A stretch of 64,000 nucleotides of DNA from Candidatus Nomurabacteria bacterium (GTDB taxonomy: Bacteria > Patescibacteriota > Minisyncoccia > Phycocordibacterales > UBA918). A model generated the notes under the pieces. The model was not told the DNA's origin. It ran no database searches and saw nothing but the letters and a program-made list of their open reading frames with translations. A program made the position numbers and the translations under genes. Positions within the stretch are counted from its first letter, which is position 1. Each line of letters begins with the position of its first letter. The DNA lies in the NCBI GenBank assembly GCA_020632035.1, contig JACKGG010000005.1, forward strand, positions 4,855 through 68,854, written 5' to 3'. Positions 2,786 through 31,412 of the stretch are shown here, in pieces.

Positions 2786-2850
2786 GTAATTAGCAGGTGT
2801 TTCCTTGTAAAAAATACAAGATAATCATCATCAACTGCTATAATATATTC

Positions 2851-14460: not shown

Positions 14461-14604
14461 TAACTATTGTCACATTTAATTTTGTGTTGCAGAAACTTGC
14501 ATTTTTGTAAGATAAGAGTAAAGTTTACGTACACGATTGCTTTGGGGTGGCGTGTTTACAATTTAATAAAGATTTTAGTATTTACCTACGATTACAATAG
14601 ATTT

Positions 14605-17600: not shown

Positions 17601-19422
17601 TAATCAATGTTCAGTCTTGCAACTAGTTAAAGTCGAGGTGGAAGAAACAGATTCACCAAGCTTTGATTACAATACTATTTACTTAGGAAGCGATAGTAAT
17701 CCAATTCCAAACGGAACATGGTTCAACTTCGATGAACTAGGAGACACTTCAGCTCATACTGTGGCTGATGCGGTTGAAGGACTTGGCGTGAGTCGAGATC
17801 CGGGGACCGGACAACTAAGAATTGGTGCGGATGGTGCTAACAAGAAAGGTTTTGACAAAGTAGTTGGAACAGTTCAGATGTTAGGACTTGAAATCGATAG
17901 TATCAAAAGGGGGATCCCGTTTGTGCCAAGGTACAAACTAGAAGAAGAACCGCCGGCTAGACATACGGATTACGCTGATAAGATTAGTGACACAGAAGCA
18001 TTATTTGATTGGCAGGTTTATGGAGCTAGCGATGGTATGACCCTACAACTTGAAACAGGCGAAGAATATGATTGTGATGAATGTAAAGCAACAGTTGAGG
18101 CGAGAATAGTTGTTAAAGATTATGGGTCTGTTGGTGCAGGAGACATGAGTGATGAAATTATCCTTGGAGACGCTGGGTACAGCACAGTAAGCTTTGGTGA
18201 ATGGTTCCCAATTTCTGAGGCAACTAACCCAGGGGATTCGGCTGTGATGATTCAGGATCCAAATACAGTTACAGGATTTTCTACCCCAGCCGATAAGCCA
18301 GGACTGTTTGTAAGTCGAGAAAACGGTACAGTTAAGGTTGCGTTATACGGAAAACTAGAGAATGGTGGCAAGGATAATAATGAATGGATTGACGCTCGAA
18401 TCGAAGTTAGAGATGCTGGTATTACTAATTTCCAAGCATTAACTGGTCCATACAAGTTAGAAAACGGTTATGATTCTGCCTCTGCAGATGGTACTGGAGT
18501 AGACTTCAAAATGAAGGTTACTACTGCATCTGATGGATTTAGATTCGATATTGATGAGAAATCTATAGCGGTTTGTGACGAAGATACAACTGACCCTGAT
18601 CCAGAAACATACCGAATTGATGGATATAAGTATGAAGTTACAGATAACGGAGATGTGCCTAAGGCAGGTTGGAATATTTACGCAGAAAACAAAGATAACG
18701 CTACTAACAAAGCCACAGTAACTGACGAAAATGGTTACTACTACTTTGATGTGCTAGAAGGTAACTGGGAAATTACTGAAGAAGTATTAACAGATTGGAG
18801 TCAAGTAGAAGTGATAGAAAATGGTGTGACAGTAGACCATGAAGGAGACGGTGTAGAATATTGTCTCTTCGACATTCCTGAAGATGATTCAGACTACGAA
18901 TGCGACTTCTACAATGAGTACATTGGAGATGGAAATGATGGTGGAGGAAGTGATGGTGATGATGACGGTGGTTCTGGAGATACTCCAGATAAGAAAAAAT
19001 CTACTCAAACCAGCACTAGAATAAGTCGCGGTGCACCTGGACAAGTGCTCGGAGCATCTACTATTGGACAATGTCCATTCTTGCTAGAATACATGCAAAT
19101 TACTGCTGAAAACAATAGCCAAGAGGTGAGTAAGTTGCAGATTTTCCTTAACTTATTCAAAGACACGTTTGGTGGAACTGAAAACCCAGTCACTGGTTTC
19201 TTCGGACCTACTACAGACTCAAACGTCAAGGCTTTCCAGGAGTATTATCGATCAGAAGTACTAGATCCATGGTACATCAGGGGAATTGTTCCTCACACTA
19301 AGGCTACGGGGTACGTCTACAAAACAACTCTATGGAAGATTAATAGCATTGTTTGTCCAGATTACGCAGTATTACCAGTGTTTGACGGGGAAGACCTCAA
19401 CTCAAATGTAGATTTGGATTAA
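14605..19422 (+). CDS. large secreted surface protein: right-handed beta-helix region, Cys-rich repeat, Cna-B/prealbumin-like domain, C-terminal peptidoglycan-binding domain
   Basis: The signal peptide runs from Met 14605 (FFAAITIVSMILSAFPVAFFVADAA). A PbH1-like repeat stretch (GNGYTIDAAF...NVFGTSDVTVMDIVLDG...) spans about 15280-15600. 'CGDGEINQDWEQCDGDDVEDGESCTDYC' (about 17509-17595) resembles the myxo-type Cys-rich repeat. 'GWNIYAENKDN...ENGYYYFD' is Cna-B-like. 'LLEYMQITAENNSQEVSKLQIFLNLF...FFGPTTDSNVKAFQEYY' (about 19070-19250) is PG_binding_1-like. Confidence 0.7.
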   Translation: MNILTYTQRNLSAKFFAAITIVSMILSAFPVAFFVADAATIDFTVYAVPDPVGTDGDGEYVTISFIDTVDFAGWKLVDNNGDETDLTSLGIVSGPDDLQICSNMVFSTNGGVNCDLTFGTNFNLVNTAGQVQLVSPDPSVVVDLTWASVTVGQTVSDSGQYIEPSVACTPQHDAAGVTNIQNTSTGDYFDSIEDALADCDTSDGDIVELLGDITTTKQQRIARPIILDGNGYTIDAAFAKNGNDNNSAINVFGTSDVTVMDIVLDGTSGTELHGLNVYRSDDVVVSNLEAKNFRTGLLVNGSVVAASDITTSGNTWHAINVDKGSDDYPATLIISNTSSHAENSATPPSGHIPGVNKPHIYVDNANGFNTVIDDDSQYDIHEFFIPTVPAVQTQQFAVAIQVPGIKPQVYTLKSVTPEPVANIHTSKIVCTDEADLPNWVSAPSTITETTATDWLAEHKDSSCSLVRGWEFEWAPKGTSDPGDTLVGTAGPDWTTFTGSTQVPESAFDGGSFWVREVLQADYIPFTHESEGDKNTDDVTAEMYCHTDGLNYDNYDRIDDPEVGGDYYCVAWNVPVEKTSDVTICKYDQSEESLEGWQLALLGAEVDSLSVKPDGTTQSMLNVPAGFYVLKADGAYEYRGNTGLLADARFSERQAGDPDFGTYPYQPWREASAGTGGLAVQVNGDLGVSWGSTFSPSHVYYGALSQASLDDVDFYVYDNAYNDNVGEIDVTLYHGYTGITEEDGCVTFEDVPYGEYEVEELLQLDWTNLSGLGPVVVDEESEVFEVVNQDPNQEPVTCTLKLTSDDTNTVDEKGGAFAKVLSFIHNNWTTTLNDADWIWGDDGPVNPSQEETQTFSNKFGWSGATVVSATLSIAADNSFSATLDGDLAGEDLGEFNFGATKDYDVASLIDAGNNELSVVVKNMEPKNPNTATGKSNPAGLYYELTIVGEGEDCGVPYIPEPEEPEYGAYCGDGEINQDWEQCDGDDVEDGESCTDYCTFDNQCSVLQLVKVEVEETDSPSFDYNTIYLGSDSNPIPNGTWFNFDELGDTSAHTVADAVEGLGVSRDPGTGQLRIGADGANKKGFDKVVGTVQMLGLEIDSIKRGIPFVPRYKLEEEPPARHTDYADKISDTEALFDWQVYGASDGMTLQLETGEEYDCDECKATVEARIVVKDYGSVGAGDMSDEIILGDAGYSTVSFGEWFPISEATNPGDSAVMIQDPNTVTGFSTPADKPGLFVSRENGTVKVALYGKLENGGKDNNEWIDARIEVRDAGITNFQALTGPYKLENGYDSASADGTGVDFKMKVTTASDGFRFDIDEKSIAVCDEDTTDPDPETYRIDGYKYEVTDNGDVPKAGWNIYAENKDNATNKATVTDENGYYYFDVLEGNWEITEEVLTDWSQVEVIENGVTVDHEGDGVEYCLFDIPEDDSDYECDFYNEYIGDGNDGGGSDGDDDGGSGDTPDKKKSTQTSTRISRGAPGQVLGASTIGQCPFLLEYMQITAENNSQEVSKLQIFLNLFKDTFGGTENPVTGFFGPTTDSNVKAFQEYYRSEVLDPWYIRGIVPHTKATGYVYKTTLWKINSIVCPDYAVLPVFDGEDLNSNVDLD

Positions 19423-19514: not shown

Positions 19515-20636
19515 ATGAGTCCAAAACTTAAAGGATTAGACATTCTGCAAAAGATATCAATGTCTCTGATGGGTGTGCTGGTGCTTATTACTTTTATTGG
19601 TGCCAATCTACAAGCTCTAACATGGCAGTCTTCAGACTGGCTAGTTTCAACAGTTTTGCCAGCCGTTGTCGTTGAACTTACTAATGAAGAACGTACCGAC
19701 AACTTGGCTCAGCCATTACAGCGTAATGTCACTCTTGACGCTGCAGCAAAAATGAAAGCTCAACACATGGCCAAAAATCAATACTTTGCACACTTTAGTC
19801 CTGATGGTGTTTCACCCTGGTACTGGTTTGATGAAGCTGGTTATGTTTACGCCCACGCTGGAGAAAATCTGGCAATTCACTTCACAGATTCTTCCGAAGT
19901 GGTTGAAGCTTGGATGAACTCTCCAACTCACCGTCAAAACATTGTAAATGGTCTGTATACTGAAATCGGTGTCGGTACTGCTAAAGGTAAATTTGAGGGT
20001 TATGACACTGTATATGTCGTCCAACTTTTTGGTACACCAGCTATACCGCCAGCACCAGTACAGCCAAAATCACTAGCCGTAGCAACTCAACCTCAACCTC
20101 CAGTAGTTGTGCCTGAACCTGAAATAGTACCTGAAATCATCCCCGAAGTAACTGTTGAACCAGCCGAGACAGTCCTTGCTCAGTCTGAAACTGCTGTTTC
20201 TGGACCAGAACCTGAACGTATCTCAGAGGAACTATTTTCTGATAATTCTAAAACTGAACTAACTGAACTAACTGTCGAGCCGGAGCAGACAGTGCCAGAA
20301 AGTATGGCTGTGGCAGAAAGCGAACCTGAGGTCGTAGTCATTGAATCACCAGTTATATCTACTTCATCTGGCCTAGCGGTGGCGCAGATCGATACTTATT
20401 CACCAACTCATGCAGGAGCGACGATTGCTTCAGTGGTAACTCAACCTAATGTTTTATTGCAAATTATCTACTTTGTACTGGCCGTTGCAGTTGTGTTGAT
20501 GCTTGGAACCTCAATCGTACTAGAGGCCCGCCGAATGCGACTCCAGCAAGTTGCTTATGGTCTCTTATTGTTATTTGGTATGGGAGGCTTGTGGTTTATA
20601 AATTCACTGCTCACCACCGGAGCAGTAGTGGTATAA
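19515..20636 (+). CDS. CAP/SCP (PR-1-like, YkwD-type) domain protein with Pro/Glu-rich linker and C-terminal TM anchor
   Basis: The CAP motifs 'HFSPDGVSPWYW...GENLA...WMNSPTHRQNI' are present. A repetitive PEPE/ELTELT linker precedes two C-terminal hydrophobic helices. Confidence 0.7.
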   Translation: MSPKLKGLDILQKISMSLMGVLVLITFIGANLQALTWQSSDWLVSTVLPAVVVELTNEERTDNLAQPLQRNVTLDAAAKMKAQHMAKNQYFAHFSPDGVSPWYWFDEAGYVYAHAGENLAIHFTDSSEVVEAWMNSPTHRQNIVNGLYTEIGVGTAKGKFEGYDTVYVVQLFGTPAIPPAPVQPKSLAVATQPQPPVVVPEPEIVPEIIPEVTVEPAETVLAQSETAVSGPEPERISEELFSDNSKTELTELTVEPEQTVPESMAVAESEPEVVVIESPVISTSSGLAVAQIDTYSPTHAGATIASVVTQPNVLLQIIYFVLAVAVVLMLGTSIVLEARRMRLQQVAYGLLLLFGMGGLWFINSLLTTGAVVV

Positions 20637-20722
20637 GGCGTAGACTACAAATATGATGAGACACAGGGTGCGAGCCAGGTTTGTTGATTTACCTAATAAA
20701 GACAATAGACTATACTTGGTAA

Positions 20723-21169
20723 ATGAAAGAAAAAACCACTACTGTATTATCTGTATTCCCTGCCACACACTCAAAAAAACTTCACTCACAACCACTTTAC
20801 GTTAGTCAACCAGCGGCTGGTTTTCCTTCCCCAGGCGATGATTTAGTAGAAAAAGCCTTGGATCTAAACGATTTACTGGTCGAGAATGAAAGCGCGACAT
20901 TTTTTGTGCGAGTGAGCGGTGATTCTATGGAGGGTGCCAAAATCTTTGATGGAGATATTTTGGTGGTAGACCGCTCCGTGGAAGCCCGGTCCGGACACAT
21001 CGTAGTCGCGGCTGTCTATGGCGAACTAGTAGTTAAACGTCTTTTGAGCAAGGGCAACAAACTTTTTTTAATATCTGAAAACGATCAATATAAACCTATT
21101 CAGATAGATGAAACCGAAGGATGCTTCATCTGGGGCGTAGTAACTGGTAGTGCTAGGGTAATTTTGTAA
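20723..21169 (+). CDS. umuD: UmuD-like S24 peptidase (LexA/UmuD family, no HTH)
   Basis: 148 aa with a candidate autocleavage site A-G in 'QPAAGFPSPGDD', catalytic Ser in 'SGDSMEG' and Lys in 'LVVKRL'. There is no N-terminal DNA-binding domain. Confidence 0.7.
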   Translation: MKEKTTTVLSVFPATHSKKLHSQPLYVSQPAAGFPSPGDDLVEKALDLNDLLVENESATFFVRVSGDSMEGAKIFDGDILVVDRSVEARSGHIVVAAVYGELVVKRLLSKGNKLFLISENDQYKPIQIDETEGCFIWGVVTGSARVIL

Positions 21170-21173
21170 GAGT

Positions 21174-22397
21174 ATGACTGTCCCAGCGTCTACGATGAAT
21201 ATGGTATTAAACAAATCGGCTTTTTTTCTCAACTTTTATATTGCAATTATCCTGTTAGGGTTCTTTTTTGTGCCAGCAGTAGCTCAAGGTGCCAGCCAGG
21301 ATGTGGGTGTCTGGATTCCTTGGTGGACAGAAGAAGCTGGTACAGAAAGTGCTTTAGAGCATATTAAAGATATAGATATAATTTACCCATTTGTGTTTGA
21401 AGTTAATTCAGATGGTTCACTAAAGAATAGGGTAAATTTTAAAGATGATCACTGGGAAGAGCTGTTTGATAAAGCCGACGACGATCGAGTAGACATTATC
21501 CCTACGGTTGCTTGGTTTGATGGTGACGCTATACACAAAATCTTGAGTAGTAAAAGTTCACGCAAGAAACATGTAGATGAGATCGTTAAAATGGTTAATA
21601 AGTATCGCTTTGATGGAGTAAACATCGATTATGAGTCTAAGTTAGGAGAGACTATCGATTATTATTCTGATTTTCTTAAAGAGCTAGAAGACGCGCTTGG
21701 TCGCAAAGATTTGACTTGTACTATTGAAGCTCGTACTCCGCCAGACTCACGTTGGAAGGAAGTGCCTGAGGTGATCAAATATGCCAATGACTACAAAGAA
21801 ATGAACAAGTACTGTGATTGGGTCGAAATAATGGCCTATGACCAACAACGTGCAGATTTGAAGCTAAACGACAAGCGAAAGGGAGTGCCATATATGCCGG
21901 TGGCTGATACTGAGTGGGTAGAAAAGGTGGTTGAACTAGCCTTAGAGGATTTTGATAAAGATAAAGTAATGCTTGGAGTGGCTACTTATGGACGCGCCTG
22001 GGACGTTACTGTTGCTCCAGAATGGTACAGAGACTATAAGCAAGTAGCAGCTATAAATCATCCTAGAATCTTAGAGCTTTCAGAAAAATACAATTCCCCT
22101 ATCGGTCGCACCGAAGGAGGAGAGGCTGTAATAAGCTATTTCCCTGAAGATTCGGTTTGGAAGATATTTAATGCGCTGCCAACACCTGTCGGTACACCAA
22201 AGGGATTCGAAGCAGCTGCAAAAGCGCTCTTAGTGGCTACGTATGCAAAGGTGGAGGTGCCAGTTAGAGTCATTATCTGGAGTGATGCCGAGGCGATAGA
22301 AGAAAAACTAGATCTAGTTAAGAAATACGACCTCAGAGGCGTTGCCGTATTTAAGGTAGATGGTGAAGAAGATTCTAAAATGTGGAAGCTATTTTAA
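21174..22397 (+). CDS. secreted glycoside hydrolase family 18-like protein
   Basis: A signal/anchor helix is followed by the GH18 catalytic motif DxxDxDxE as 'FDGVNIDYE', with Tyr where the usual DxDWE has Trp. The start codon lies 5 nt after the umuD stop. Confidence 0.6.
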   Translation: MTVPASTMNMVLNKSAFFLNFYIAIILLGFFFVPAVAQGASQDVGVWIPWWTEEAGTESALEHIKDIDIIYPFVFEVNSDGSLKNRVNFKDDHWEELFDKADDDRVDIIPTVAWFDGDAIHKILSSKSSRKKHVDEIVKMVNKYRFDGVNIDYESKLGETIDYYSDFLKELEDALGRKDLTCTIEARTPPDSRWKEVPEVIKYANDYKEMNKYCDWVEIMAYDQQRADLKLNDKRKGVPYMPVADTEWVEKVVELALEDFDKDKVMLGVATYGRAWDVTVAPEWYRDYKQVAAINHPRILELSEKYNSPIGRTEGGEAVISYFPEDSVWKIFNALPTPVGTPKGFEAAAKALLVATYAKVEVPVRVIIWSDAEAIEEKLDLVKKYDLRGVAVFKVDGEEDSKMWKLF

Positions 22398-22448
22398 GTA
22401 ACCAAGAAATCAACAATCATTATCTCCTTGTTTTATCTTAGAAAACTT

Positions 22449-22472
22449 TAAGTTCGAATCCTGCCACCGGAG
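22449..22472 (+). repeat. copy A of a 24-27-bp direct-repeat family (AAGTTCGAATCCTGCCACCGGAG)
   Basis: Intergenic, 52 nt after the GH18 stop. It shares AAGTTCGAA..TCC..CACC..GGAG with copies B and C. Confidence 0.5.
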
Positions 22473-22602
22473 AATTTAAGTTTTAGCCGCCAAAGAGGCA
22501 CGAATTTTATTATGTTACTTTGCTTACTATACAACAGGATAGTTATAGAGTATAACTTCCGCATGTTCTTTTTAGTAATTTTCAGACATGAAGGGGTGTG
22601 AA

Positions 22603-23088
22603 ATGCAAAAATTAAACATTAAATACAACTCAGAGGATTGGAGGGGCGCTGTTTTGTCTAATTTGGCCACCACCCCTTTCTCTGTCGCAGGTTTTGACTT
22701 TCTGTCTGTGGAAAGTGCTATTCAGGGCATAAAGTTCCACAGTAAGAACGAAAGAGAGTCGGTATTTAGAATGACCGGCATGGATGCCCTTAAGGCTGGA
22801 CGCCCAATAACAAACTCAATAAGTGAAAGGGTAGAGTCTTTCGTGTACTGGGAAGGGCAGGAGTTTCCTTATAACTCAATGGATCATCGTCTGCTTCTCG
22901 CCATGTTTATTGGCGAGAAAGTCAGACAGAATCCAAACGTACAAGAAGCTCTCTTGGCAACTGACGGGACCTTTATTTACCACGATGTGGGGGAAGAGAA
23001 CCCCAACACTTCTTTGCCGGAGAAATTCTATATCCAAATACTACTTGCTCAAAGAAGCTTGCTGGCTCGACTTAGGAATATTTCCTAG
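22603..23088 (+). CDS. NADAR-like (YbiA-type) domain protein
   Basis: 'FSVAGFDFLSVESAIQGIKF' can be compared with E. coli YbiA 'FSNF...TSEHYFQAQKF', and 'LLATDGTFIYHDVGEENPN' with YbiA 'LLATAPAKLVEHTENDAYWGDG'. The SD AAGGGG sits 7 nt upstream of the ATG at 22603. Confidence 0.45.
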   Translation: MQKLNIKYNSEDWRGAVLSNLATTPFSVAGFDFLSVESAIQGIKFHSKNERESVFRMTGMDALKAGRPITNSISERVESFVYWEGQEFPYNSMDHRLLLAMFIGEKVRQNPNVQEALLATDGTFIYHDVGEENPNTSLPEKFYIQILLAQRSLLARLRNIS

Positions 23089-23112
23089 TTTGCTAATTTC
23101 TCACCAAGATAG

Positions 23113-23145
23113 ACAAGGCTGTCCGTAAGGACGGCCTTTCTTTTT
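23113..23145 (+). terminator. rho-independent terminator
   Basis: GGCTGTCCG-TAA-GGACGGCC followed by TTTCTTTTT. Confidence 0.55.
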
Positions 23146-23183
23146 ATACAAAGTTGACACCTTTAGAGGTGAGTTTGAAACTT

Positions 23184-23224
23184 TGTAGTGTTGTATTGAC
23201 ATTGTCACTACATAACTTATTATA
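23184..23224 (+). promoter_or_regulatory. promoter with overlapping inverted-repeat operator upstream of the relB/dinJ-yafQ pair
   Basis: The inverted repeat TGTAGTG (23184-23190) / CACTACA (23206-23212) brackets -35 TTGACA (23196-23201). The -10-like ATTATA (23219-23224) lies 7 nt before the ATG, implying a near-leaderless transcript. Confidence 0.4.
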
Positions 23225-23231
23225 GATACAT

Positions 23232-23507
23232 ATGAATTCACAAGAAACAATTCAAATTAGGATTGATGCCAAAACTAAGAAAGCAGCTAGGAAGACTCTA
23301 GATGAGCTAGGATTAGATATGTCTAGTGCTGTTAAGCTATTTTTAACTAATGTGGTAAACAGAAAAGGTATACCTTTTGATCTGCGGACTGAGAATGGGT
23401 TCACCTTGGCTCAAGAGCAGGCTTTAATAGCTGAGACAGAGGTAGCAAAGAAGACCGGTAAGAGTTTTAGTGATCTTGATGAACTTTTTTCAGATTTAAA
23501 ATTGTAG
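23232..23507 (+). CDS. relB: RelB/DinJ family antitoxin
   Basis: 91 aa. 'IQIRIDAKTKKAARKTLDELGLDMSSAVKLFL' is a ribbon-helix-helix DinJ/RelB signature. Confidence 0.75.
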   Translation: MNSQETIQIRIDAKTKKAARKTLDELGLDMSSAVKLFLTNVVNRKGIPFDLRTENGFTLAQEQALIAETEVAKKTGKSFSDLDELFSDLKL

Positions 23508-23509
23508 TC

Positions 23510-23791
23510 GTGAAGTATTCAGTACACTACACTACACGCTTTAAAAAATCCCTTAAGCGTGCAAAACAACTGCCTGCTTTCAAGTCAGAAAAACTTAAGG
23601 AGGCTATTTCAATTTTGGCACATGGTAATAGTCTTCCTCCAGAATTTAAAGACCACCGACTTACTGGAAACATGAAAAAGTTTAGAGAGTGTCATTTAGC
23701 TCCGGATATTATTCTTATCTATGAGACAGACGATGGAATTCTAATCCTTACTCTTGTTAATATCGGTAACCATTCTCAGTTGTTTAAATAA
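23510..23791 (+). CDS. yafQ: YafQ/RelE-family mRNA interferase toxin
   Basis: 93 aa with a GTG start 3 nt after the antitoxin stop. 'YTTRFKKSLKRAKQ' and 'KDHRLTGNMKKFRECHLAPDIILIY' match the YafQ/RelE fold signature. Confidence 0.75.
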   Translation: MKYSVHYTTRFKKSLKRAKQLPAFKSEKLKEAISILAHGNSLPPEFKDHRLTGNMKKFRECHLAPDIILIYETDDGILILTLVNIGNHSQLFK

Positions 23792-23792
23792 G

Positions 23793-23819
23793 TTCGAACA
23801 TCCTTCACCCAGCGGAGCC
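23793..23819 (+). repeat. copy B of the direct-repeat family (TTCGAACATCCTTCACCCAGCGGAGCC)
   Basis: It begins 2 nt after the yafQ stop. It differs from copy C at only 2-3 of 27 positions. Confidence 0.55.
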
Positions 23820-23904
23820 AATTGAAATACCCGTATTTTACAGGGATGTTTTTTATTACCTGAAATCGATATCGAACTTTTTGTGACTATTGTAATAAAA
23901 ATAT

Positions 23905-23932
23905 TTGACTTCTTATTTTTAGTATCTATAAT
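23905..23932 (+). promoter_or_regulatory. sigma-70-like promoter (-35 TTGACT, 16-bp spacer, -10 TATAAT)
   Basis: TTGACT is at 23905-23910 and TATAAT at 23927-23932. The predicted TSS at about 23939-23940 coincides with the uORF ATG. Confidence 0.45.
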
Positions 23933-23939
23933 CAAGTAA

Positions 23940-24011
23940 ATGACTAATAAATATCAATTCAACACTTGGTGGACTGCTTGGAGAAACGGGCAGTGGTGTT
24001 TTTGTATTTAA
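23940..24011 (+). CDS. candidate leader peptide MTNKYQFNTWWTAWRNGQWCFCI (23 aa; 4 Trp including a WW pair)
   Basis: The ATG at the predicted TSS indicates a leaderless mRNA. Four TGG codons fall in a 30-nt stretch of an AT-rich genome. GGGCAGT (23988-23994) inside the uORF can pair with ACTGCCC of the downstream terminator's 5' arm. Confidence 0.3.
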   Translation: MTNKYQFNTWWTAWRNGQWCFCI

Positions 24012-24040
24012 TAGTGATTATTCTCCATTAAGTGAAAAAT

Positions 24041-24064
24041 AACTGCCCTCAAGGCAGTTTTTTC
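24041..24064 (+). terminator. intrinsic terminator / attenuator 27 nt upstream of the oxidoreductase start
   Basis: AACTGCC-CTCAA-GGCAGTT followed by TTTTC. The upstream GGGCAGT can form an alternative, mutually exclusive helix with the 5' arm. Confidence 0.5.
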
Positions 24065-24090
24065 TTATAAATCTAAAAATTAATTAAAAT

Positions 24091-25071
24091 ATGAAAACAA
24101 TTAAAAAAACGGACGTGGTAATTATTGGAGCGGGATTCTCAGGGCTTTATTTGGCACATCATTTAGTAAAGGTTGGTAAACGTGATTTCCTCATTGTTGC
24201 GCCCGATATGCAAGCTGTGAGTGACAAGTCATACTTCAATATCAGGTCTAGGGGGGTAAAGCAGACTTCGTTAAAAGAATCTATGAATGTCGCAAGTTAC
24301 GGTATGAGCAACAGACAGTTAGTTAATGTGCTCGTTAACAATATTGATGATGAACTTACATACTTAAGTCATATAACGAAAATGAAACCATCTTTCCTTG
24401 GTGCAATTGTAGCAAGGCCTAAATCGTTGATGAACAAGATACGTAAGGAATCAATCCACAACAGGGTATATGCGGAGGTGTCTTCAGTTAAAAAAAGACA
24501 TGGATACGTAGAAGTCATAACAACTGAAGGTAAGATTCATTGCAAGAAGGTTGTATTTTGCTTCGGTGGTTTAAGAGCGAGATTGTCAGAAAAGTTTGTT
24601 GATGAGAAGGTTAAGAATAACCTTTTTAAGGCTGCTAAAGATGTTGGTTGTGATGTTTTGTATCAAGACCTGGTTATGAAGCATCCTTTCTACTCAAAAG
24701 GTGTCTGCATTCCTAGTGATGATTTGTATAACTTTGATTTCGTTGATGATAAGGAAAAACGTCTTGAGTTAACACATCACTTAGTTAGGGCACATAATGC
24801 CCATCATAGGTTTGATGATATTTGCAAAGAATATCAGAGGACAATAAAGCGCTACGCAATAAATAGAGATAAAATAATTGAATTGGATATAGAGCCTCAT
24901 TTTGTCTTGGGTGGAATAAAGATAAACAGAAGAGGAGAGACAAAGGTAAAAAATGTTTATGCTTTAGGAGAATGCGCTTATGGCATGCATGGCAAAGGTA
25001 GATTAGGAGGTGGTTCCATCGCAGAAATTCTCGTTATGTCTAGAGTGGTTGCAAAACAGATTATTGGTTAG
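24091..25071 (+). CDS. FAD-dependent oxidoreductase (short NadB/FrdA-like flavoprotein)
   Basis: The N-terminal Rossmann motif is 'DVVIIGAGFSGLYLA'. The C-terminal 'ALGECAYGMHGKGRLGGGSIAEILV' resembles the C-terminal FAD-binding motif of L-aspartate oxidase and succinate dehydrogenase flavoproteins. Confidence 0.6.
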   Translation: MKTIKKTDVVIIGAGFSGLYLAHHLVKVGKRDFLIVAPDMQAVSDKSYFNIRSRGVKQTSLKESMNVASYGMSNRQLVNVLVNNIDDELTYLSHITKMKPSFLGAIVARPKSLMNKIRKESIHNRVYAEVSSVKKRHGYVEVITTEGKIHCKKVVFCFGGLRARLSEKFVDEKVKNNLFKAAKDVGCDVLYQDLVMKHPFYSKGVCIPSDDLYNFDFVDDKEKRLELTHHLVRAHNAHHRFDDICKEYQRTIKRYAINRDKIIELDIEPHFVLGGIKINRRGETKVKNVYALGECAYGMHGKGRLGGGSIAEILVMSRVVAKQIIG

Positions 25072-25086
25072 TGCCTACGATATAAG

Positions 25087-25113
25087 TCCGAACATCCACC
25101 ACCCAGCGGAGCC
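25087..25113 (+). repeat. copy C of the direct-repeat family (TCCGAACATCCACCACCCAGCGGAGCC)
   Basis: It lies between the oxidoreductase stop (25071) and the umuC start (25139). Confidence 0.55.
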
Positions 25114-25138
25114 TAAGTTAGCTTGCTATAATACTTTT

Positions 25139-26389
25139 ATGAACCCTTCCTTGATTGGACTTTTGGATTGCAACAATTTTTTTGTATCGTGTGAAAGACT
25201 GTTCCGACCGGATCTAATAGGGAAGCCAGTGGTAGTGCTGTCCAGTAATGATGGTTGTGTAGTAGCTCGATCGAAAGAGATAAAGGACATGGGTATACCA
25301 ATGGGTGTCCCTTACTTTCAGATAAAGGACATTTTAAAAAAAGCTGATGCCGTAACGTTTTCTTCGCACTTTTCTTTGTATCGAGACATCTCAAAAAGAG
25401 TGTTTTCTGTCATGCACAAAGAACTTGGTTTTATTGAGCAATATTCGATAGATGAAGCTTTCTTTACTGTAAGTTCAGGAGCAGAAGAAGTCGCACATAA
25501 CTTAAAAAGAGTGATTGAAAAACAAGTAGGTATCCCAGTTTCAATTGGCTTGGCACAAACAAAAACTCAAGCAAAATATGCTAATTCAATAGCTAAAAAG
25601 GGCACAGGGGTCTGTGCCCTAAGGTTGTCTGATTGGCAGGCTATAGCTAAAGATATTCCCCTAGCTAGTATCTGGGGCGTCGGCGGAAAAACGGAGCTTT
25701 TATATAAAAAACACGGTCTTGAAACCGTTGCGGATTTTATTGTGTTGGATCAATCTAGAGTGGCTAGTTTATTTGGACTGTCTGGCATTAGACTACAACA
25801 AGAATTGATCGGTAATCCAGTGTTTTCGGTTGAACATAAAGTATCTACCCAACAAAGTATTTTGAGCTCAAGATCTTTTTCTGAGACGGCTACAGATTTG
25901 TCTGTTTTGGCTGATGCAGTGGCTTACCATGTGCGTCACGCCACTGCTAATTTGAGATCCTTGGGATTGGAGGCAGGTAAGATCAGAGTCTCGATTCGGC
26001 CGAGTAGACACAGTGATTTTATGCTTCGTGGGGGCTCTAAAGAAGCCTTTATGATTGCTCCTACTGCTGATTCTATATCATTGCTCAGAGTAGCAAACGA
26101 TCTCTTAAAAGATCTGCATGAACCGGGCGTACCCTACAAAAAAGTGGGTGTCGTGTTGTCTCTATTCAGCCCAGTAAACCAAGGACAAACTACGCTTTTT
26201 CCAGACGATACTAAAGTCAAACATGACACGCTGATGTCATTGGTGGACAGCCTTAATACTAAGATAAAAAAAGAATCAGTGTTACTAGGGTCGAGATTGT
26301 TAAGTTCGGCTTGGCAAGCAAAGAGTGAAGTGTGTTCACCGAGCTATACGACTAACTGGTCAGAGGTGGTAATAACTAAAGCTCAATAA
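25139..26389 (+). CDS. umuC: Y-family DNA polymerase, UmuC-like (Pol V catalytic subunit)
   Basis: 'GLLDCNNFFVSCERLFRPDLIGKPVVVLSSNDGCVVARSKEIKDMGI' matches the Y-family N-terminal palm motif. The 417-aa length is UmuC-like. The start was moved to the Met at 25139. Confidence 0.85.
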   Translation: MNPSLIGLLDCNNFFVSCERLFRPDLIGKPVVVLSSNDGCVVARSKEIKDMGIPMGVPYFQIKDILKKADAVTFSSHFSLYRDISKRVFSVMHKELGFIEQYSIDEAFFTVSSGAEEVAHNLKRVIEKQVGIPVSIGLAQTKTQAKYANSIAKKGTGVCALRLSDWQAIAKDIPLASIWGVGGKTELLYKKHGLETVADFIVLDQSRVASLFGLSGIRLQQELIGNPVFSVEHKVSTQQSILSSRSFSETATDLSVLADAVAYHVRHATANLRSLGLEAGKIRVSIRPSRHSDFMLRGGSKEAFMIAPTADSISLLRVANDLLKDLHEPGVPYKKVGVVLSLFSPVNQGQTTLFPDDTKVKHDTLMSLVDSLNTKIKKESVLLGSRLLSSAWQAKSEVCSPSYTTNWSEVVITKAQ

Positions 26390-26695: not shown

Positions 26696-27829
26696 ATGTT
26701 CGCAAAAGCAACAAACGTTGGCTTTGCGCAACGGGTGGTCGCGACACTTGTTGCCTGTTCATTAGTACTTTGGTCAATCGGAGTCTACTCAACAGCACAA
26801 GCAGCCAACCTAACATTATTCAGTGATACTTTGTCAGACTCAGACTTAAGTGTTACATCGTCTCATACTATTGAGTTCGATTTGCCAGCTGGATCACCAG
26901 GTATCCTGGCAGGAGATGACATTGTCATTACATGGGACAGCCAGGACGATGGAGCCGGTGGTCAAGACTTCGGTGGTATTGCCGCTATTGTCGACAACTC
27001 TGATTTAACTTACCAAGTTAACTTGGGCGGTCCGGCAGCACCAAACTATGTTGCATCAGACGGAAACTCACTAACAATTGACGGCATAGTAGCCTCAGCG
27101 GGAGACACTGTAGAAATCGTAGTCGCGGATGGAGTAATTACTAACCCAGCTGTGAGTGGCTCATTCGAAATTGAGGTCGCAATCGCAAACGTTGATAATG
27201 ACCTTGGTCGTACTCGTGTCGCTATTGTTGACAATGTAACTGTGACAGCAATAGTAGATACAAGTTTTGACTTTACTATTACTGGACTAGCCACTTCTTC
27301 TGCAGTTAATGGATCAGTTACTACTGGTTCAACATCTCCAGTTCTAATTGACTTCGGTAAGCTAGTAGCTGATACACCAGAGATTCTTGCTCAAGAACTA
27401 ACTGTTGTAACCAACTCTAGAAACGGGTTCGTAGTAACTGTTAATACTGACGGAGATCTTCAGTCTTCAAACGGCGCTATCATTGATAACTTTGATGAAG
27501 GCACAGATGTGTCTGACACAGGTACAGCCTGGAACTCACCAGCTCCAGACGTCAATGACGAAACCACTTGGGGACACTGGGGAATGACATCTACAGATGG
27601 TGACCTGAACTCACTAGGTGGATACTACACAGGAGAGTTTGGAGCCAATGATTACATTGCTGCTTCAACCACTCCACGAGCAGTGTTCCATCACGATGGT
27701 CCATCTGATGGTCTAACACAGAATATTGGAACAACAACAGTTGGATACCAGATAGAAATCACCTCGCTTCAAGAAGCGGCCGATGACTACACTGCAACTC
27801 TAACTTACGTAGCGACCCCTACTTTCTAA
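26696..27829 (+). CDS. secreted protein with WxL-like C-terminal domain
   Basis: Signal peptide (LVACSLVLWSIGVYSTAQA). The C-terminal end '...DDYTATLTYVATPTF' resembles the terminal LTWxLxDxP motif of WxL surface domains. An internal 'NIG..T' block is shared with the C-termini of the giant ORF and the 61694 gene. Confidence 0.45.
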   Translation: MFAKATNVGFAQRVVATLVACSLVLWSIGVYSTAQAANLTLFSDTLSDSDLSVTSSHTIEFDLPAGSPGILAGDDIVITWDSQDDGAGGQDFGGIAAIVDNSDLTYQVNLGGPAAPNYVASDGNSLTIDGIVASAGDTVEIVVADGVITNPAVSGSFEIEVAIANVDNDLGRTRVAIVDNVTVTAIVDTSFDFTITGLATSSAVNGSVTTGSTSPVLIDFGKLVADTPEILAQELTVVTNSRNGFVVTVNTDGDLQSSNGAIIDNFDEGTDVSDTGTAWNSPAPDVNDETTWGHWGMTSTDGDLNSLGGYYTGEFGANDYIAASTTPRAVFHHDGPSDGLTQNIGTTTVGYQIEITSLQEAADDYTATLTYVATPTF

Positions 27830-27844
27830 GTAAACGCTAAATCA

Positions 27845-27871
27845 AAAAACCTCCTAAATAGGAGGTTTTTT
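27845..27871 (+). terminator. rho-independent terminator
   Basis: AAAAACCTCCTA-AA-TAGGAGGTTTTTT. Confidence 0.6.
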
Positions 27872-27950
27872 GTGTATATAAGTTATAAACAAAATTATGG
27901 GAGGTGTTATTATTAGTCTTATTCCAAAATGTACAACAATTAACTAATCT

Positions 27951-29039
27951 ATGGCTATTTTACGCTTGTCCAATATTAAACTGAGAGCAGGAGCATTTAT
28001 GCTAGCGCTGATAGCTGTTATAATTTTTTTGATTACTCCTCATCAGGCAGGAGCTCAGCAGGTTGGTGTTAGTATAACTCCTGCTACAATTGAAGAAACT
28101 TTAGATCCTAGTCAAGAACAGACCTACACACTAACAATTGAAAACCTAAACAGTTCAGACCAAAAATACTATTTGTTTACTAAAAATATTTCTGGAGTTG
28201 AAAATGGAGGGGTGCCAATATTTGCAAAAAGTGATCAAGAAGTCACAGGTTATGAACTCACTGATTGGATAGATCTTCCACTAAATGAAGTCGACGTCAG
28301 TGCTGGGGAAGAATATAGTTTTCAGTTTAAGATTTCTGTTCCTGAAAATGCTACGCCGGGCAGCCACTTTGGAGGGATATTTATCTCAGTTGACCCACCA
28401 GAAATAGAGAAAAGTGGAGCAGCTGTGGGTTACCAGGTAGCTAATATAATTAGTATACGGGTGTCAGGTAAGGCCAAAGATGAAGCAACTATAAGACAGT
28501 TTTCGACTACTAAATTTTTTTACGGATCACAGAATGTAGATTTTTTGGCTCGTATAGAAAATACCGGTAACGTATTGATACGCCCAGTTGGTTTATTAGA
28601 AGTTTACAACATGCTGGGTAAAAAAGTTGGTGATGTAGGATTTAATACAGAAAGATCAGCAGTCTTCCCAAATGATACTCGAGAGTTCAATAAGATTTCT
28701 TGGCAAGGAAACTCGATTGGTTTTGGTCGATATGAGGCCCAGTTAAGTGCTAATTACGGTGATTCAGGAGCCAAAAAAAGCATGTATAGTACTGTTTCAT
28801 TTTGGATATTGCCAATGAACATAATTGGCCCGGCGCTTGCGGTTTTGGCAGTCTTGTTCCTAATTATATTTATATTTGTTAGAGTCTATATAAAGCGGTC
28901 ATTGTCTCACATAAACTATGGACGAAGGATTGTAAAAAAACGAAGGAACAACAGCTCTTCAACAACGTTGCTGGTTATAGTGGTTACTCTTACGGTTACG
29001 GCTTTATTCCTCATTGTAATGCTGGCACTTTTTGCATAG
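27951..29039 (+). CDS. DUF916-like cell-surface protein with C-terminal TM anchor and basic tail
   Basis: Signal peptide. The N-terminal beta-rich region 'VGVSITPATIEETLDPSQEQTYTLTIENL' is like DUF916 (CscB-type). A C-terminal TM helix is followed by 'KRRNNSSS' and a second hydrophobic segment. Confidence 0.45.
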   Translation: MAILRLSNIKLRAGAFMLALIAVIIFLITPHQAGAQQVGVSITPATIEETLDPSQEQTYTLTIENLNSSDQKYYLFTKNISGVENGGVPIFAKSDQEVTGYELTDWIDLPLNEVDVSAGEEYSFQFKISVPENATPGSHFGGIFISVDPPEIEKSGAAVGYQVANIISIRVSGKAKDEATIRQFSTTKFFYGSQNVDFLARIENTGNVLIRPVGLLEVYNMLGKKVGDVGFNTERSAVFPNDTREFNKISWQGNSIGFGRYEAQLSANYGDSGAKKSMYSTVSFWILPMNIIGPALAVLAVLFLIIFIFVRVYIKRSLSHINYGRRIVKKRRNNSSSTTLLVIVVTLTVTALFLIVMLALFA

Positions 29040-29059
29040 GCGAGTAAAATAGAAATACT

Positions 29060-29464
29060 GTGACACACAACTCTACCTATCATAGAATCTTAAGGATTTC
29101 TGCCCTCGTCTGTGCAGTGGTTCTTCTATTTGAGAGTGGATTGTTAAGCCAAACTTCAGCAAAAATGGCTCATGATACTAGTGTGTATCTGGCCAATGCA
29201 ATTGGTATGTCAGCCTCAGTTCAGCCAACAGAGCTAAATACCTATACTGCAGCTTTGACGCAAAAGGAACGTGAGCTTGATTCTAGGGAAGCAGCTTTAA
29301 GAGAAAGAGAAGTTGCAGTAAATCTTTCAACTGATAGTAATTCATCAGATACTGTAACTTATATTTTGGCTAGCATTCTTTTTGTCCTACTAGTGCTTAT
29401 ACTTCTAAACTACACACTTGACTATATAAGAGCAAAAGAAGCGAGAATGTCGCAAACTGTGTAG
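29060..29464 (+). CDS. small bitopic membrane protein with coiled-coil segment
   Basis: 134 aa with N- and C-terminal hydrophobic helices flanking 'KERELDSREAALREREVAV'. Confidence 0.4.
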   Translation: MTHNSTYHRILRISALVCAVVLLFESGLLSQTSAKMAHDTSVYLANAIGMSASVQPTELNTYTAALTQKERELDSREAALREREVAVNLSTDSNSSDTVTYILASILFVLLVLILLNYTLDYIRAKEARMSQTV

Positions 29465-29507
29465 TGCTAAGAAAAAATATCTTTTTGCAGGTTACAATAT
29501 ATATTGT

Positions 29508-31412
29508 ATGGATTTCGTGATAAAACAACGAGCGCTGTTTTATGCTTTGCTCCTAGCTTTTTTAGGAAGTCTATTTTTTGTCAACTCAGATTTTGCTGAA
29601 GCTGTGAATGTTGTTGAGTACAAAGACGTTATATCTGATTCCGGTCCATCAGAGCAATCCAATCATAGTCTATCGTTTGTCTTGAATACTAATCTTTCGC
29701 CTGGAAGTACATTTGAGGTCACTCCACCAGATGGGTTTAGCGTTATTTCTGCTGCCACTTTTGCAGAAAGAAACGTAGAGTTAGTTATCGATGGTATACC
29801 AAGAGTAGCCAGTGATGCGCTTGCTCCTGGAGTCGATATGGTAGAAATTACTCCAGGTTCACCTGGCTTTATTAAGTACACCCTAGCGCCAGATGCTTCT
29901 GTGAGTTCTGGCAGTCAAATCGAATTCAAGATCGGTAACCATACTTCTAATTCTCAGCAAATAGGAACAGCCTACAGTTCGACAACTGGTACGACCACTG
30001 TACCAGCAGACATAGAGCCAATTATTAACTCATCAGATTTAGGGAAACACGATGTCCAGTTAGAGATATATGACGGTAGCTTAGTTGCCAACGCTGACTT
30101 TGTAGTTTTCTTAGTTGAAAAAGTGCAAATGCCAGGTATTGATACTACTGAAGAAATTCCTCCATTTCGTTTTAATCCGGCTCCAACTAGTACAGTAGGA
30201 GGAACTACGCTCAGTGTAGAAATATCTCTGGAAACAGATGAGTTTGCAATTTGTCGGTATAGCACTAGTCCAGATGTTGCTTACGTTGCAATGACCAATA
30301 CTTTCAGTAATACTGGTTTAATCTACCACTCAACTGTGGTGACGGTCACTCCAAGTACAGTCGCTTCATATTATGTAAGATGTATCGATGATGAAGGCAA
30401 CTTCAACATAGACGACTTCTTAATACAGTTTACTGTTAATGATACTCCAACCGGGACTTCAAACGAAGAGGGTGACGTAGACGGAGATGGTACTGGTACT
30501 GGGAATTCTGGTAGTGGGGATGGTTCTGGTGGAGGAGGTACATCTGGTGCTTCAGATGGTGTAGAACCATTGGCAGGGGGTAGTACTGGTTCTGGTGGTT
30601 CTGGCGGTGGCGGGGGAGGCGGCTCAGGCGGTAGTTCTGGTAGTTCAGGAGGAGGAGGTTTTGAGAGTACTGATGCTCCATACAGAAGTGGTGACGGTCG
30701 GGTAGAAATCTCTGGCTACGCTTATCCAAACAGTTCGGTCACGATTTTGGTTGACGGTAACATTTTTTCGACAGTGAAAGCAAATAGCTCTGGCTCTTAC
30801 TCTGAGACTCTAGATGAAATTGCTAGAGGTGTATACACCTTTGGTGTGTACGCCGACGATTCTAATAGAGTACGGTCTTCTACTTTTAGCACCTCGTTCA
30901 CTGTCACAGGAGCGCGGACCTCTGCTTTGAGTAACATCAATGTCTCACCATCAATCTCAGTAGACCCAGACCCGGTTAATCCTGGCCAGACGCTAACCTT
31001 GTCTGGTTACGCATTACCAAATTCAGTTGTCACTATAGAAAACGGTCGACTAAATCGAGCTAGTAGTCAAACATTGTCTGCAAATTCTGATTCAAGTGGT
31101 AAGTGGAGTACAATCATACCAACCAATGGATTTACAGTTGATACATATCAAGTTAGAGCCAAATCACAGCAGGACGGAGGCCAAACAACTCAGTTTTCGA
31201 AGTATACTTTTTATGGAGTCGGCAAGTCAGCTGATGTCCCACTAAACGCCGACTTAAATAGAGATGGTAAGGTTAACCTTATAGACTTTTCTATCTTGCT
31301 ATTCTGGTGGGGTGGAACTGGTGGTGACTCAGACCCGCCTGCCGATATAAACCTAGATGGTAACGTGAGTCTAACCGACTTCTCGATCCTTCTCTTCAAC
31401 TGGACTGGATAA
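29508..31412 (+). CDS. secreted multi-domain protein with Gly/Ser-rich linker, Ig-like repeats and C-terminal dockerin
   Basis: Signal peptide. An about 60-aa Gly/Ser linker sits near 30470-30670. The C-terminal tandem calcium-binding repeats 'ADLNRDGKVNLIDFSILL' and 'ADINLDGNVSLTDFSILL' (about 31231-31409) form a type-I dockerin signature. Confidence 0.65.
   Translation: MDFVIKQRALFYALLLAFLGSLFFVNSDFAEAVNVVEYKDVISDSGPSEQSNHSLSFVLNTNLSPGSTFEVTPPDGFSVISAATFAERNVELVIDGIPRVASDALAPGVDMVEITPGSPGFIKYTLAPDASVSSGSQIEFKIGNHTSNSQQIGTAYSSTTGTTTVPADIEPIINSSDLGKHDVQLEIYDGSLVANADFVVFLVEKVQMPGIDTTEEIPPFRFNPAPTSTVGGTTLSVEISLETDEFAICRYSTSPDVAYVAMTNTFSNTGLIYHSTVVTVTPSTVASYYVRCIDDEGNFNIDDFLIQFTVNDTPTGTSNEEGDVDGDGTGTGNSGSGDGSGGGGTSGASDGVEPLAGGSTGSGGSGGGGGGGSGGSSGSSGGGGFESTDAPYRSGDGRVEISGYAYPNSSVTILVDGNIFSTVKANSSGSYSETLDEIARGVYTFGVYADDSNRVRSSTFSTSFTVTGARTSALSNINVSPSISVDPDPVNPGQTLTLSGYALPNSVVTIENGRLNRASSQTLSANSDSSGKWSTIIPTNGFTVDTYQVRAKSQQDGGQTTQFSKYTFYGVGKSADVPLNADLNRDGKVNLIDFSILLFWWGGTGGDSDPPADINLDGNVSLTDFSILLFNWTG

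Follow-up and report, generated by a model that had tools for sequence, protein, structure and literature searches.

In model organisms, umuD and umuC, the two genes of DNA polymerase V (pol V), are adjacent. Mobile elements are poorly known in bacteria of the Candidate Phyla Radiation (CPR). Asparagine tDNAs are known hotspots of genomic islands (PMC4891358), and in streptococci tandem site-specific accretion leaves integrase-less elements flanked by attachment (att) sites, the concept of cis-mobilizable and integrative mobilizable elements (CIME/IME) (PMC7168690). Here we describe a pol V locus (positions 20723–26389) in a 64,000-nt stretch of Candidatus Nomurabacteria DNA, hereafter the window (contig JACKGG010000005.1 of assembly GCA_020632035.1), in which umuD-like and umuC-like genes are separated by genes for a family 18 glycoside hydrolase (GH18), a NADAR-family protein, a RelB–YafQ toxin–antitoxin (TA) pair and a flavoprotein that binds flavin adenine dinucleotide (FAD). 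We consider it probable that the locus consists of two layers, a split pol V that was inherited and a cassette insert that is recent and specific to this species.

A preliminary description, made from the sequence alone, had placed a UmuD-type gene at 20723..21169 and, separated from it, a UmuC-type gene at 25139..26389. Profile matches confirm a UmuD-type and a UmuC-like gene at these coordinates, and all the genes named between them are present with strong matches; we regard these identities as established, the subfamily of the polymerase being less firm. Nearly all genes of the window, and all features of the locus described here, are on the + strand. The 148-aa UmuD-like S24 autopeptidase (Pfam Peptidase_S24, E=7e-32) has no DNA-binding domain. 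It scores 148.5 bits with the NCBIfam model of the autoproteolytic pol V subunit (PRK10276, cutoff 110) and just 79 bits with the LexA model. Among the PHROG phage families, ‘UmuD-like’ reaches 151.7 bits versus 79.5 for the repressor family, and the best PDB match is E. coli UmuD (8gmt_B, 93 bits), with LexA chains at 69 bits or less. The protein carries an AAG|FPSP cleavage motif (A32–G33), a GDSM serine motif and a VVKRL lysine motif. In the alignment to 8gmt_B, AAGFPSP lies over E. coli CGFPSP, and SGDSM over the SGDSM motif of the catalytic serine; we take the functional residues of the E. coli protein to be Cys24–Gly25, Ser60 and Lys97. The UmuD-type motif is kept in about 55 orthologues. 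By sequence, the 148-aa protein groups with UmuD and not with repressors, the alternative that the preliminary description had considered. The UmuC-like Y-family DNA polymerase (IMS, IMS_C and DUF4113) matches the UmuC model best in NCBIfam (264.9 bits, which is below the curated UmuC-subfamily cutoff of 431, versus 163.5 for the best DinB model), and its catalytic D (LLDCNNFF) and DE (SIDEAF) align with Pol IV structures.

The order umuD–GH18–umuC is shared with relatives, and this synteny is likewise an observation. GH18 homologues gave 1470 matches, the best 120 of which are 66–100% identical. A metagenome scan with the GH18 alignment yielded 80 further loci, which were tabulated with our own hidden Markov models of UmuD, GH18, UmuC, the CAP-family protein encoded upstream of umuD and the pilin-like protein encoded downstream of umuC; 73 GH18 loci are non-redundant. 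Searches based on GH18 were far richer than a genome-contig search with UmuC alone, which gave two loci only. umuD lies directly 5' of GH18 in 52 of the 58 non-redundant loci with at least 1 kb upstream, and umuC lies 3' of it in 29 of the 33 with at least 2.5 kb downstream, indicating that the norm of the lineage is umuD–GH18–umuC rather than adjacent umuDC. Both genes surround GH18 in 40 non-redundant loci, at GH18 identities of 55–100%. In 48 of 60 loci, umuD and GH18 are separated by no more than 100 nt (often below 50 nt, and sometimes the genes overlap; 4 nt in the window). A Kaiserbacteria locus with a UmuC 49% identical to that of the window (L005) has the order CAP–umuD–GH18–umuC–pilin-like, with 246 nt between GH18 and umuC. 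The same order, with GH18|umuC spacers of 58–67 nt and flanks collinear on both sides, is found in L007, L010 and L100, of which L010 is a complete genome (CP060228, 951,832 bp). All four loci have CAP–umuD–GH18–umuC and lack the other intervening genes of the window, hereafter the cargo. Homologues of window proteins are labelled Kaiserbacteria, Nomurabacteria or Patescibacteria. Judging from synteny, GH18 is an ancestral resident of the pol V locus and not cargo. The preliminary description had proposed that everything between umuD and umuC was inserted cargo. Its proposal stands for the part at 22.4–25.1 kb, which carries the TA pair and the repeats and is found in the window only, and fails for GH18, since relatives have it in the same gene order.

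The insert of about 2.7 kb (22398..25113) was delimited by alignment with the empty sites of L007 and L100. Homology to the nearest relatives, in which GH18 is 85–86% identical, ends at the GH18 stop codon and restarts only at TAAGT..TTGCTATAAT, just 5' of umuC. Thus, the insert runs from 22398 to about 25113, where it replaces the 67-nt GH18|umuC spacer of these relatives. Among 42 loci the distance from GH18 to umuC varies between 16 and 2741 nt, the largest value being that of the window. It is at most 100 nt in 20 loci. In another 16 it measures 336–755 nt and mostly accommodates one RppH-like NUDIX gene, on either strand, and in four it measures 1.3–2.1 kb, with a Y1-transposase-like, Fic/RhuM-like, pilin-like or phosphatase gene. 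The cargo genes of the window are absent from every other locus of the set. In L008, the umuD|GH18 junction holds genes for a 1734-aa S74-peptidase protein, ParE/RelB and a DUF285 protein, and a NUDIX gene precedes umuC; both junctions are therefore permissive. Judged by these gap contents, the GH18|umuC spacer of relatives is a hotspot in which insertions recur. Among relatives, 20 pol V loci contain the RppH-like NUDIX gene (for example, L008 11429–11899, L015 9200–9736 and L047 5188–5703), in both orientations and sometimes 5', sometimes 3' of GH18; the window lacks it. A 219-aa open reading frame (ORF) resembling Y1 (IS200/RAYT-like) transposases occupies the GH18|umuC slot of L047 (7575–8234) and L058 (5617–6276). 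Two further sources represent the strain or its close kin: a Logan contig (L001) is 99.98% identical to the window over 5.9 kb, and contigs of NCBI assembly GCA_020428885.1 carry an identical copy of the UmuD-like protein.

tRNA-Asn-like repeats and the origin of the insert

Three repeats resembling the 3' end of tRNA-Asn delimit the units of the insert in the order A–[NADAR, TA]–B–[FAD]–C. Repeats B (GTTCGAACATCCTTCACCCAGCGGAGC, 23792..23818) and C (GTCCGAACATCCACCACCCAGCGGAGC, 25086..25112) are 27-nt motifs that belong to a 32-nt direct repeat located with a repeat finder (23788–23819 and 25082–25113), whose copies match at 29 of 32 positions, lie 1294 nt apart and exactly bracket the FAD unit. 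When the window was shuffled 100 times, no match at all appeared, and the short direct repeats noted in the preliminary description are thus real. Repeat A (22451..22480), the third repeat-related sequence, follows GH18. It represents part of a tRNA-Asn 3' end, from the T-loop to the acceptor end, together with 8 nt of downstream flank, and is identical at 27 of 30 positions to the 3' end of a tRNA-Asn(GTT) plus its downstream flank in another genome (L099; z=13.4). There is no intact tRNA at repeat A, nor is there a tRNA gene, a possible native attB, in any relative's umuDC-type locus. The sole tRNA of the window is a tRNA-Ser at 2699, with no further Rfam match in the window. At gathering and permissive thresholds, Rfam gave no match for the repeats or for the leader described below, and tRNAs only in the comparison loci.

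The homology of the repeats to sequences elsewhere is an observation, too. Repeat B is identical at 26 of 27 positions to L099 5110–5136. L099 belongs to the same genome as the umuDC locus L008; its tRNA-Asn is followed by 27-mers at 5110, 7350 (weak) and 9214, the array lies ahead of an ion-channel gene and a FAD gene, and the downstream flank of the tRNA is duplicated after the 27-mer at 9214. The homology between the window (23792–23901) and L099 (5110–5219) extends about 85 nt past the core, at 74% identity, and the FAD units are 70% identical in nucleotide sequence. In L095/L096 the closest FAD homologue (85% identical) lies directly 3' of an intact tRNA-Asn(GTT), and 50 nt past the end of the FAD gene a partial copy of this tRNA's 3' end recurs as a 27-mer. 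The tRNA end and the 27-mer thus bracket the cassette, 1265 nt apart versus 1294 nt in the window. The same FAD cassette is flanked by two 27-mers in L014, while in L013 three copies of the motif are identical across exactly 27 nt and have unrelated flanks. In a position weight matrix scan, strong 27-mers were confined to FAD-type variable loci and the window; about 800 kb of umuDC-type loci gave two marginal matches versus five in shuffled controls. The viral contigs scanned for the 27-mer held no match. The motif has no inverted-repeat symmetry. Taken at the level of sequence, the repeat pattern is that left by site-specific recombination cores and tandem accretion, and the likeliest origin of the cargo is tandem accretion of integrase-less cassettes from a tRNA-Asn array.

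Such arrays of 27-mers (GTTCGAAC..GCGGAGC) extend over L099 4061–9240, L095 5708–9238, L014 910–6713 and L013 1799–6040, where one- or two-gene cassettes 3' of tRNA-Asn(GTT) are set apart from each other by the motif. The cassettes encode, among others, a beta-lactamase-fold protein, a DDE transposase, a MOSC protein, a methyltransferase and a Bro-N protein; no integrase was seen in these arrays. In L013, the 24 nt directly behind one of two identical 27-mers (1826–1849) form the reverse complement of the 24 nt behind the other (2907–2930; TTTTGTAAAGCAAAGTAAAGTATT and complement), which hints at inversion between the sites. Directly after the tRNA-Asn of L099 (4134–4200) is a tandem repeat, GGTGAATGGGGAG, in about four copies, the first of which is duplicated after the 27-mer at 9214. 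We also compared repeat C with the native GH18|umuC spacer of L007; identity of the two was rejected, because z is 2.3 and the shared part is only the TAAGT..TTGCTATAAT promoter.

Several observations weigh against the two-layer reading. No recombinase was found among the scanned ORFs of the window or within about 10–20 kb of the comparison arrays, which leaves the recombination mechanism hypothetical. No pseudo-att site was recognised in the empty spacer of relatives, repeat C scoring low against the L007 spacer. GC and codon usage leave the TA and FAD units unmarked as foreign. On the pol V side, the UmuC score falls below its curated cutoff, and no SOS box (GAAC-N4-GTTC) was found near the locus; the one match in the window, at 56909, is attributable to chance, and the consensus is of the Gram-positive type and may not be that of the host. 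Finally, the 27-mer has a fixed length, 5 nt longer than the true segment from T-loop to 3' end of a tRNA, is always on the coding strand and is in most cases followed by an intrinsic terminator within 10–15 nt. Given the fixed length and the terminator, it could act as a functional RNA or in association with a terminator instead of serving as an att core.

These properties of the 27-mer, together with the absence of a nearby recombinase and the homology to L099 beyond the core, are what favours the best-surviving alternative, in which the 27-mers are functional 3'-end elements (motifs for RNA processing, protein binding or association with a terminator) or decaying pieces of tRNA pseudogenes carried along with cassettes, and the cargo entered the GH18|umuC spacer by homologous or illegitimate recombination after DNA uptake. 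We regard it as possible, though doubtful. The three L013 copies, identical over exactly 27 nt between unrelated flanks, look as a recombination core should, and in L095 and L099 the leftmost copy is provided by a real tRNA-Asn with its 3' end. The duplicated tRNA flank after the L099 27-mer at 9214 and the lack of a strong motif in about 800 kb of ordinary Kaiserbacteria-like loci also argue for site-specific recombination.

Cargo genes and the Trp-codon leader

The first cargo gene (22588..23088, although the start may be 22603) encodes an orphan NADAR-family putative DNA ADP-ribosyl-glycohydrolase and is followed by an intrinsic terminator (23115..23138, terminator scan). The protein belongs to PF08010 (Phage_30_3; E=2e-18, 66.9 bits, cutoff 36). 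Its structural model (predicted local distance difference test, pLDDT, 95.5) matches YbiA 2B3W, 8BAT and 8BAU with a Foldseek probability of 1.00, and these are the sole significant PDB matches of the model; a sequence search against PDB gave no match. Family membership and fold show that the earlier label ‘NADAR-like’ was correct. PF08010 is the family of T4 gp30.3, renamed AdfN, a NADAR enzyme that counters DarT1 by reversing its DNA ADP-ribosylation (PMC11257639). Like AdfN, the window protein combines PF08010 with the NADAR fold and is an orphan with no adjacent DarT gene; unlike AdfN, it is encoded in the chromosome of a CPR bacterium. From its family, the product would be a guanine-ADP-ribose glycohydrolase acting on DNA. 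Most of its relatives bear Patescibacteria labels, with identities of no more than 72%, and the viral contigs scanned for the protein held no relative. The gene is atypical in composition (z=-1.7), with the highest GC content at third codon positions in the window (0.49).

The TA operon has a promoter close to consensus, TTGACA-16-TATTAT (23196..23223), with the palindrome TGACATTGTCA overlapping its -35 box. It encodes a RelB/DinJ-family antitoxin (23232..23507; RelB TIGR02384, 80.5 bits, cutoff 45.65) and, after a gap of 2 nt, a YafQ/RelE-family toxin, a putative mRNA interferase (23510..23791; Pfam YafQ_toxin, 102.5 bits, cutoff 30). With an upstream antitoxin, a toxin of about 90 aa with the RelE/YafQ fold and an operator-like palindrome, relB-yafQ has the features expected of a type II TA module.

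The flavoprotein cassette starts with a promoter, TTGACT-16-TATAAT (23905..23932), that is kept in homologous cassettes. A leader ORF of 23 aa, MTNKYQFNTWWTAWRNGQWCFCI (23940..24011), starts 7 nt past the -10 box and contains a WW[TAS]AW core. It overlaps a predicted attenuator RNA (23973..24059; fold z=-3.4), composed of helix 1:2 (23973–23994) and terminator helix 3:4 (24041–24059) with a T-run; an alternative helix 2:3 is possible between GGGCAGT and ACTGCCC. Conservation of these helices is an observation. Six homologous cassettes, found in unrelated contexts, keep the TGGTGG.CTGC.TGG core and the terminator. Across them, helices 1:2 and 3:4 are 95.6% paired, whereas helix 2:3 shows 100% pairing (n=6; 11 of 500 shuffles reach this value) and includes a single compensatory pair, seen as GC in four cassettes, as AU in one and as UA in one. 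Thus, the promoter, leader and attenuator ascribed to the FAD gene in the preliminary description are real and conserved. From its sequence, the leader has the architecture of a Trp-codon leader-peptide attenuator and is new to Rfam. Attenuators are also present at L099 9845–10000, L013 4842–5000, L014 4844–5000, L095 5844–6000 and L097 at about 2850–3000, and a homologue at 46% identity (L098) is without the WW motif.

The flavoprotein gene (24091..25071) encodes a miniature protein of 326 aa, assigned to FAD_binding_2 by Pfam. Its family has about 60 members, for which all source-given names are Patescibacteria-group labels. The model (pLDDT 91.6) has a trimmed fold of fumarate reductase, flavocytochrome c3, urocanate reductase and L-aspartate oxidase, with TM-scores of 0.7–0.8 at about 15% identity. 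The window and the same-strain Logan contig differ at a single place, a run of six G (24251–24256) versus five in L001 (4814–4818), which in L001 frameshifts the gene into ORFs of 55 and 262 aa. Either a sequencing error or a genuine on/off polymorphism could account for the difference.

It is improbable, in our view, that the Trp-rich ORF is no regulatory leader but encodes a functional small peptide, which might serve the flavoenzyme as substrate or partner. The core is kept at the amino-acid level in all six cassettes, and precursor-peptide genes are often followed by leaky terminators. However, the peptide is unconserved outside the core, including its C-terminal Cys residues, and conservation at the nucleotide level falls on RNA segments 1 and 2. 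Moreover, three mutually exclusive helices are kept, the antiterminator being fully paired with its one compensatory change.

Transcription units, GH18 and the gene neighbourhood

umuD is preceded by a promoter-like site, TTTACC-17-TATACT (20688..20716); with only 6 nt from the end of the -10 box to the ATG, the mRNA is probably leaderless. A (G)TATACT box is found 6–8 nt 5' of the umuD ATG in most relatives; in some loci umuD abuts the CAP gene. umuC has its own extended -10 promoter, TTGCTATAAT (25123..25132), which also ends 6 nt before the ATG. The TGnTATA(A/C)T box lies 6–8 nt 5' of the umuC ATG in about 40 relatives as well as in the window, and in most empty sites an intrinsic terminator stands between GH18 and the umuC -10 box. 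Inspection by eye of the sequences 5' of umuD and umuC revealed no conserved palindrome. Since the gap between umuD and GH18 is tight, the two are presumably co-transcribed, and we infer the transcription units to be (CAP-)umuD–GH18 and a separate umuC. The terminator scan found none from the end of the flavoprotein gene to the umuC promoter (25072–25138), which makes read-through from the flavoprotein gene and its attenuator into umuC conceivable; in other genomes, unlike in this interval of the window, the 27-mer is followed by a terminator. Shine-Dalgarno motifs are rare window-wide, and many genes have a -10-like hexamer ending 6–9 nt before the start (umuD, relB, the leader ORF and umuC; also 8184, 8739, 19515, 31783 and 59052), suggesting that leaderless mRNAs are common in this organism.

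The neighbourhood contains mainly surface-protein genes. Directly 5' of umuD, in the window and in nearly all related loci, is the gene for a CAP/YkwD-family secreted protein (19515..20636; Pfam CAP, E=2e-18), which is preceded by the gene for a SpaA-like protein of 1651 aa with a peptidoglycan-binding domain (14467–19422). umuC is followed by genes for pilin-like, WxL-interacting-like, dockerin, HSP20 and cohesin proteins and then by a giant ORF of 7816 aa (33932–57382). Both giant ORFs are positionally conserved in relatives; in L007, for instance, the counterpart of the 7816-aa ORF has 8128 aa and that of the SpaA-like ORF 1682 aa. The interval 26696–31412 is a conserved cluster encoding the pilin-like protein, the WxL-interacting-like peptidoglycan-binding protein, a small membrane protein and the dockerin protein; the pilin-like protein has a weak NCBIfam match to CPR_Pam_pilin_C (E=0.0011, under the cutoff).

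The GH18 gene (21174..22397; E=2e-26) begins 4 nt past the umuD stop codon. Its product starts with a hydrophobic signal or anchor segment and contains the motif DGVNIDYE, which is invariant; YdhD, SleL and YaaH, which are spore-cortex enzymes, are among its closest relatives of solved structure. A sister clade of GH18 (55–60% identical) has no umuD or umuC nearby; there the gene sits between those for an alpha/beta-hydrolase and TatD, near the gene for MetRS. GH18 therefore exists independently of pol V, and its interleaving with umuD and umuC goes back to a single origin deep in the lineage. We read GH18 as a predicted glycosidase of the cell envelope whose tie to pol V is one of position only. 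The tight and strongly conserved linkage to umuD, and the high conservation of GH18 itself, could instead speak for a functional tie, for example wall remodelling in the DNA-damage response, with the interleaving selected for co-regulation. We think this unlikely, because the protein would be extracytoplasmic, the sister clade keeps it without umuDC, cargo is tolerated on either side of it and, in a neighbourhood of surface proteins, position alone explains the linkage.

There is very little to be said for the view that umuD and umuC were formerly adjacent in this genome and that everything between them, GH18 included, was inserted into its operon. Adjacency is established for model organisms, and the sister clade implies that GH18 and umuDC were joined at some ancient point. 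However, the 40 non-redundant loci with GH18 between the two genes include a complete genome, GH18 is better conserved than UmuC relative to L005 (55% versus 49% identity), and empty-site homology runs through GH18 to its stop codon, all of which contradicts any recent event. Hardly credible is the other proposal of the preliminary description, a horizontally acquired mutagenesis and defence islet comprising the whole 20.7–26.4 kb block: Y-family polymerases, TA pairs and anti-DarT-type NADAR proteins are frequent on mobile elements and direct repeats are present, but the repeats bound only 22.4–25.1 kb, the flanks are collinear in relatives upstream (sigma factor, giant SpaA-like protein and CAP) and downstream (from the pilin-like gene to the giant ORF), PADLOC recognised no defence family among the seven locus proteins, Pfam revealed no integrase or transposase family among the window ORFs of at least 90 aa (the 7816-aa ORF left out), and GC and codon usage are ordinary for umuD, GH18, umuC, TA and FAD, the NADAR gene being the sole exception.

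Proposed history and comparison with known systems

According to the two-layer reading, the first layer would be old and vertically inherited, namely the pol V genes of a Kaiserbacteria-like lineage inside a conserved neighbourhood of cell-surface genes. umuD would be linked to GH18 (gap usually 3–90 nt), with umuC forming a separate, probably leaderless unit with a TGnTATAAT box. By homology, RecA-stimulated self-cleavage of UmuD at Ala32–Gly33 would yield UmuD', which together with UmuC would act as a translesion polymerase. GH18, a presumably secreted enzyme resembling spore-cortex and peptidoglycan glycosidases, would be a positional passenger rather than a partner of pol V. The second layer would be recent and limited to this species: a neutral gap between a terminator and a promoter would have received the insert, whose units, an AdfN-like NADAR gene, a RelB–YafQ addiction module and a Trp-attenuated flavoprotein gene, are autonomous in expression. 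The cargo may be a piece of the tRNA-Asn-anchored variable array known from other Patescibacteria, delivered or assembled by site-specific recombination at the cores with a recombinase encoded elsewhere, and the TA pair may help to retain it.

The pol V part of the locus is a lineage-specific variant of a known system, and the cargo is familiar genome plasticity in an unusual guise. It is possible, though doubtful, that the cargo reflects an undescribed cassette exchange of Patescibacteria, in which small cassettes with their own expression signals, each closed by a 27-nt mimic of the tRNA-Asn 3' end, build up in tandem 3' of tRNA-Asn and are redeployed by a recombinase acting in trans to secondary sites, the GH18|umuC spacer among them. 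One widely shared cassette would then bring a new Trp-sensing leader-peptide attenuator, in control of a miniature flavoprotein of the fumarate-reductase fold, to organisms thought unable to make tryptophan. The split arrangement (umuD–GH18 | umuC) is the inherited norm in a large uncultured lineage, so annotation pipelines and studies of the SOS regulon should not expect a umuDC operon there, and the subunits of pol V can apparently stay in separate transcription units for long in a genome of about 1 Mb. The contents of the hotspot are linked to tRNA-Asn-anchored arrays, which makes the 27-nt motif a searchable handle on gene flow in CPR bacteria. The Trp-leader attenuator provides a testable clue to the role of a CPR-specific flavoprotein.

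Compared with umuDC of E. coli and its plasmid counterparts (mucAB, impAB, rumAB), the window has the same predicted self-cleaving S24 UmuD without a helix-turn-helix domain, with an Ala-Gly cleavage site and a Ser/Lys dyad, and a UmuC-like Y-family polymerase with a DUF4113 tail. By contrast, the genes of the window lineage are neither adjacent nor coupled, a gene for a secreted GH18 lies between them, umuC has its own promoter of the leaderless type, and no LexA box of the Gram-positive consensus was recognised. The flavoprotein leader is best compared with trpL-type attenuators. It shares with them a short ORF with tandem Trp codons over segment 1, the alternative helices 1:2, 2:3 and 3:4, and a terminator with a U-run directly 5' of the structural gene. 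It differs in that it would control a miniature flavoprotein of the FrdA/NadB fold and not Trp biosynthesis, in that the leader ORF is itself leaderless, and in its Patescibacterium host and lack of an Rfam match.

As in tRNA-gene islands and the CIME/IME of streptococci, the units of the insert are bounded by direct repeats derived from a tRNA 3' end, in a core-unit-core-unit-core arrangement, a TA module is present, and the units of relatives adjoin an intact tRNA-Asn. Unlike such islands, the window insert has neither a tRNA gene nor an integrase, and its composition is ordinary save for the NADAR gene; at 1.3 kb its units are very small, a distinct variant of 27 nt takes the place of a plain tRNA-end copy as the repeat, and the array lies inside a pol V locus. 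Integron arrays are also made of serial one- or two-gene cassettes, mostly in one orientation and each ending in a short conserved site, and the arrays of relatives are, in the same manner, anchored at a fixed platform. Unlike in integrons, IntI, attI and Pc are absent here, the 27-mer is not an imperfect palindrome of the attC kind, and the cassettes carry their own promoters and terminators.

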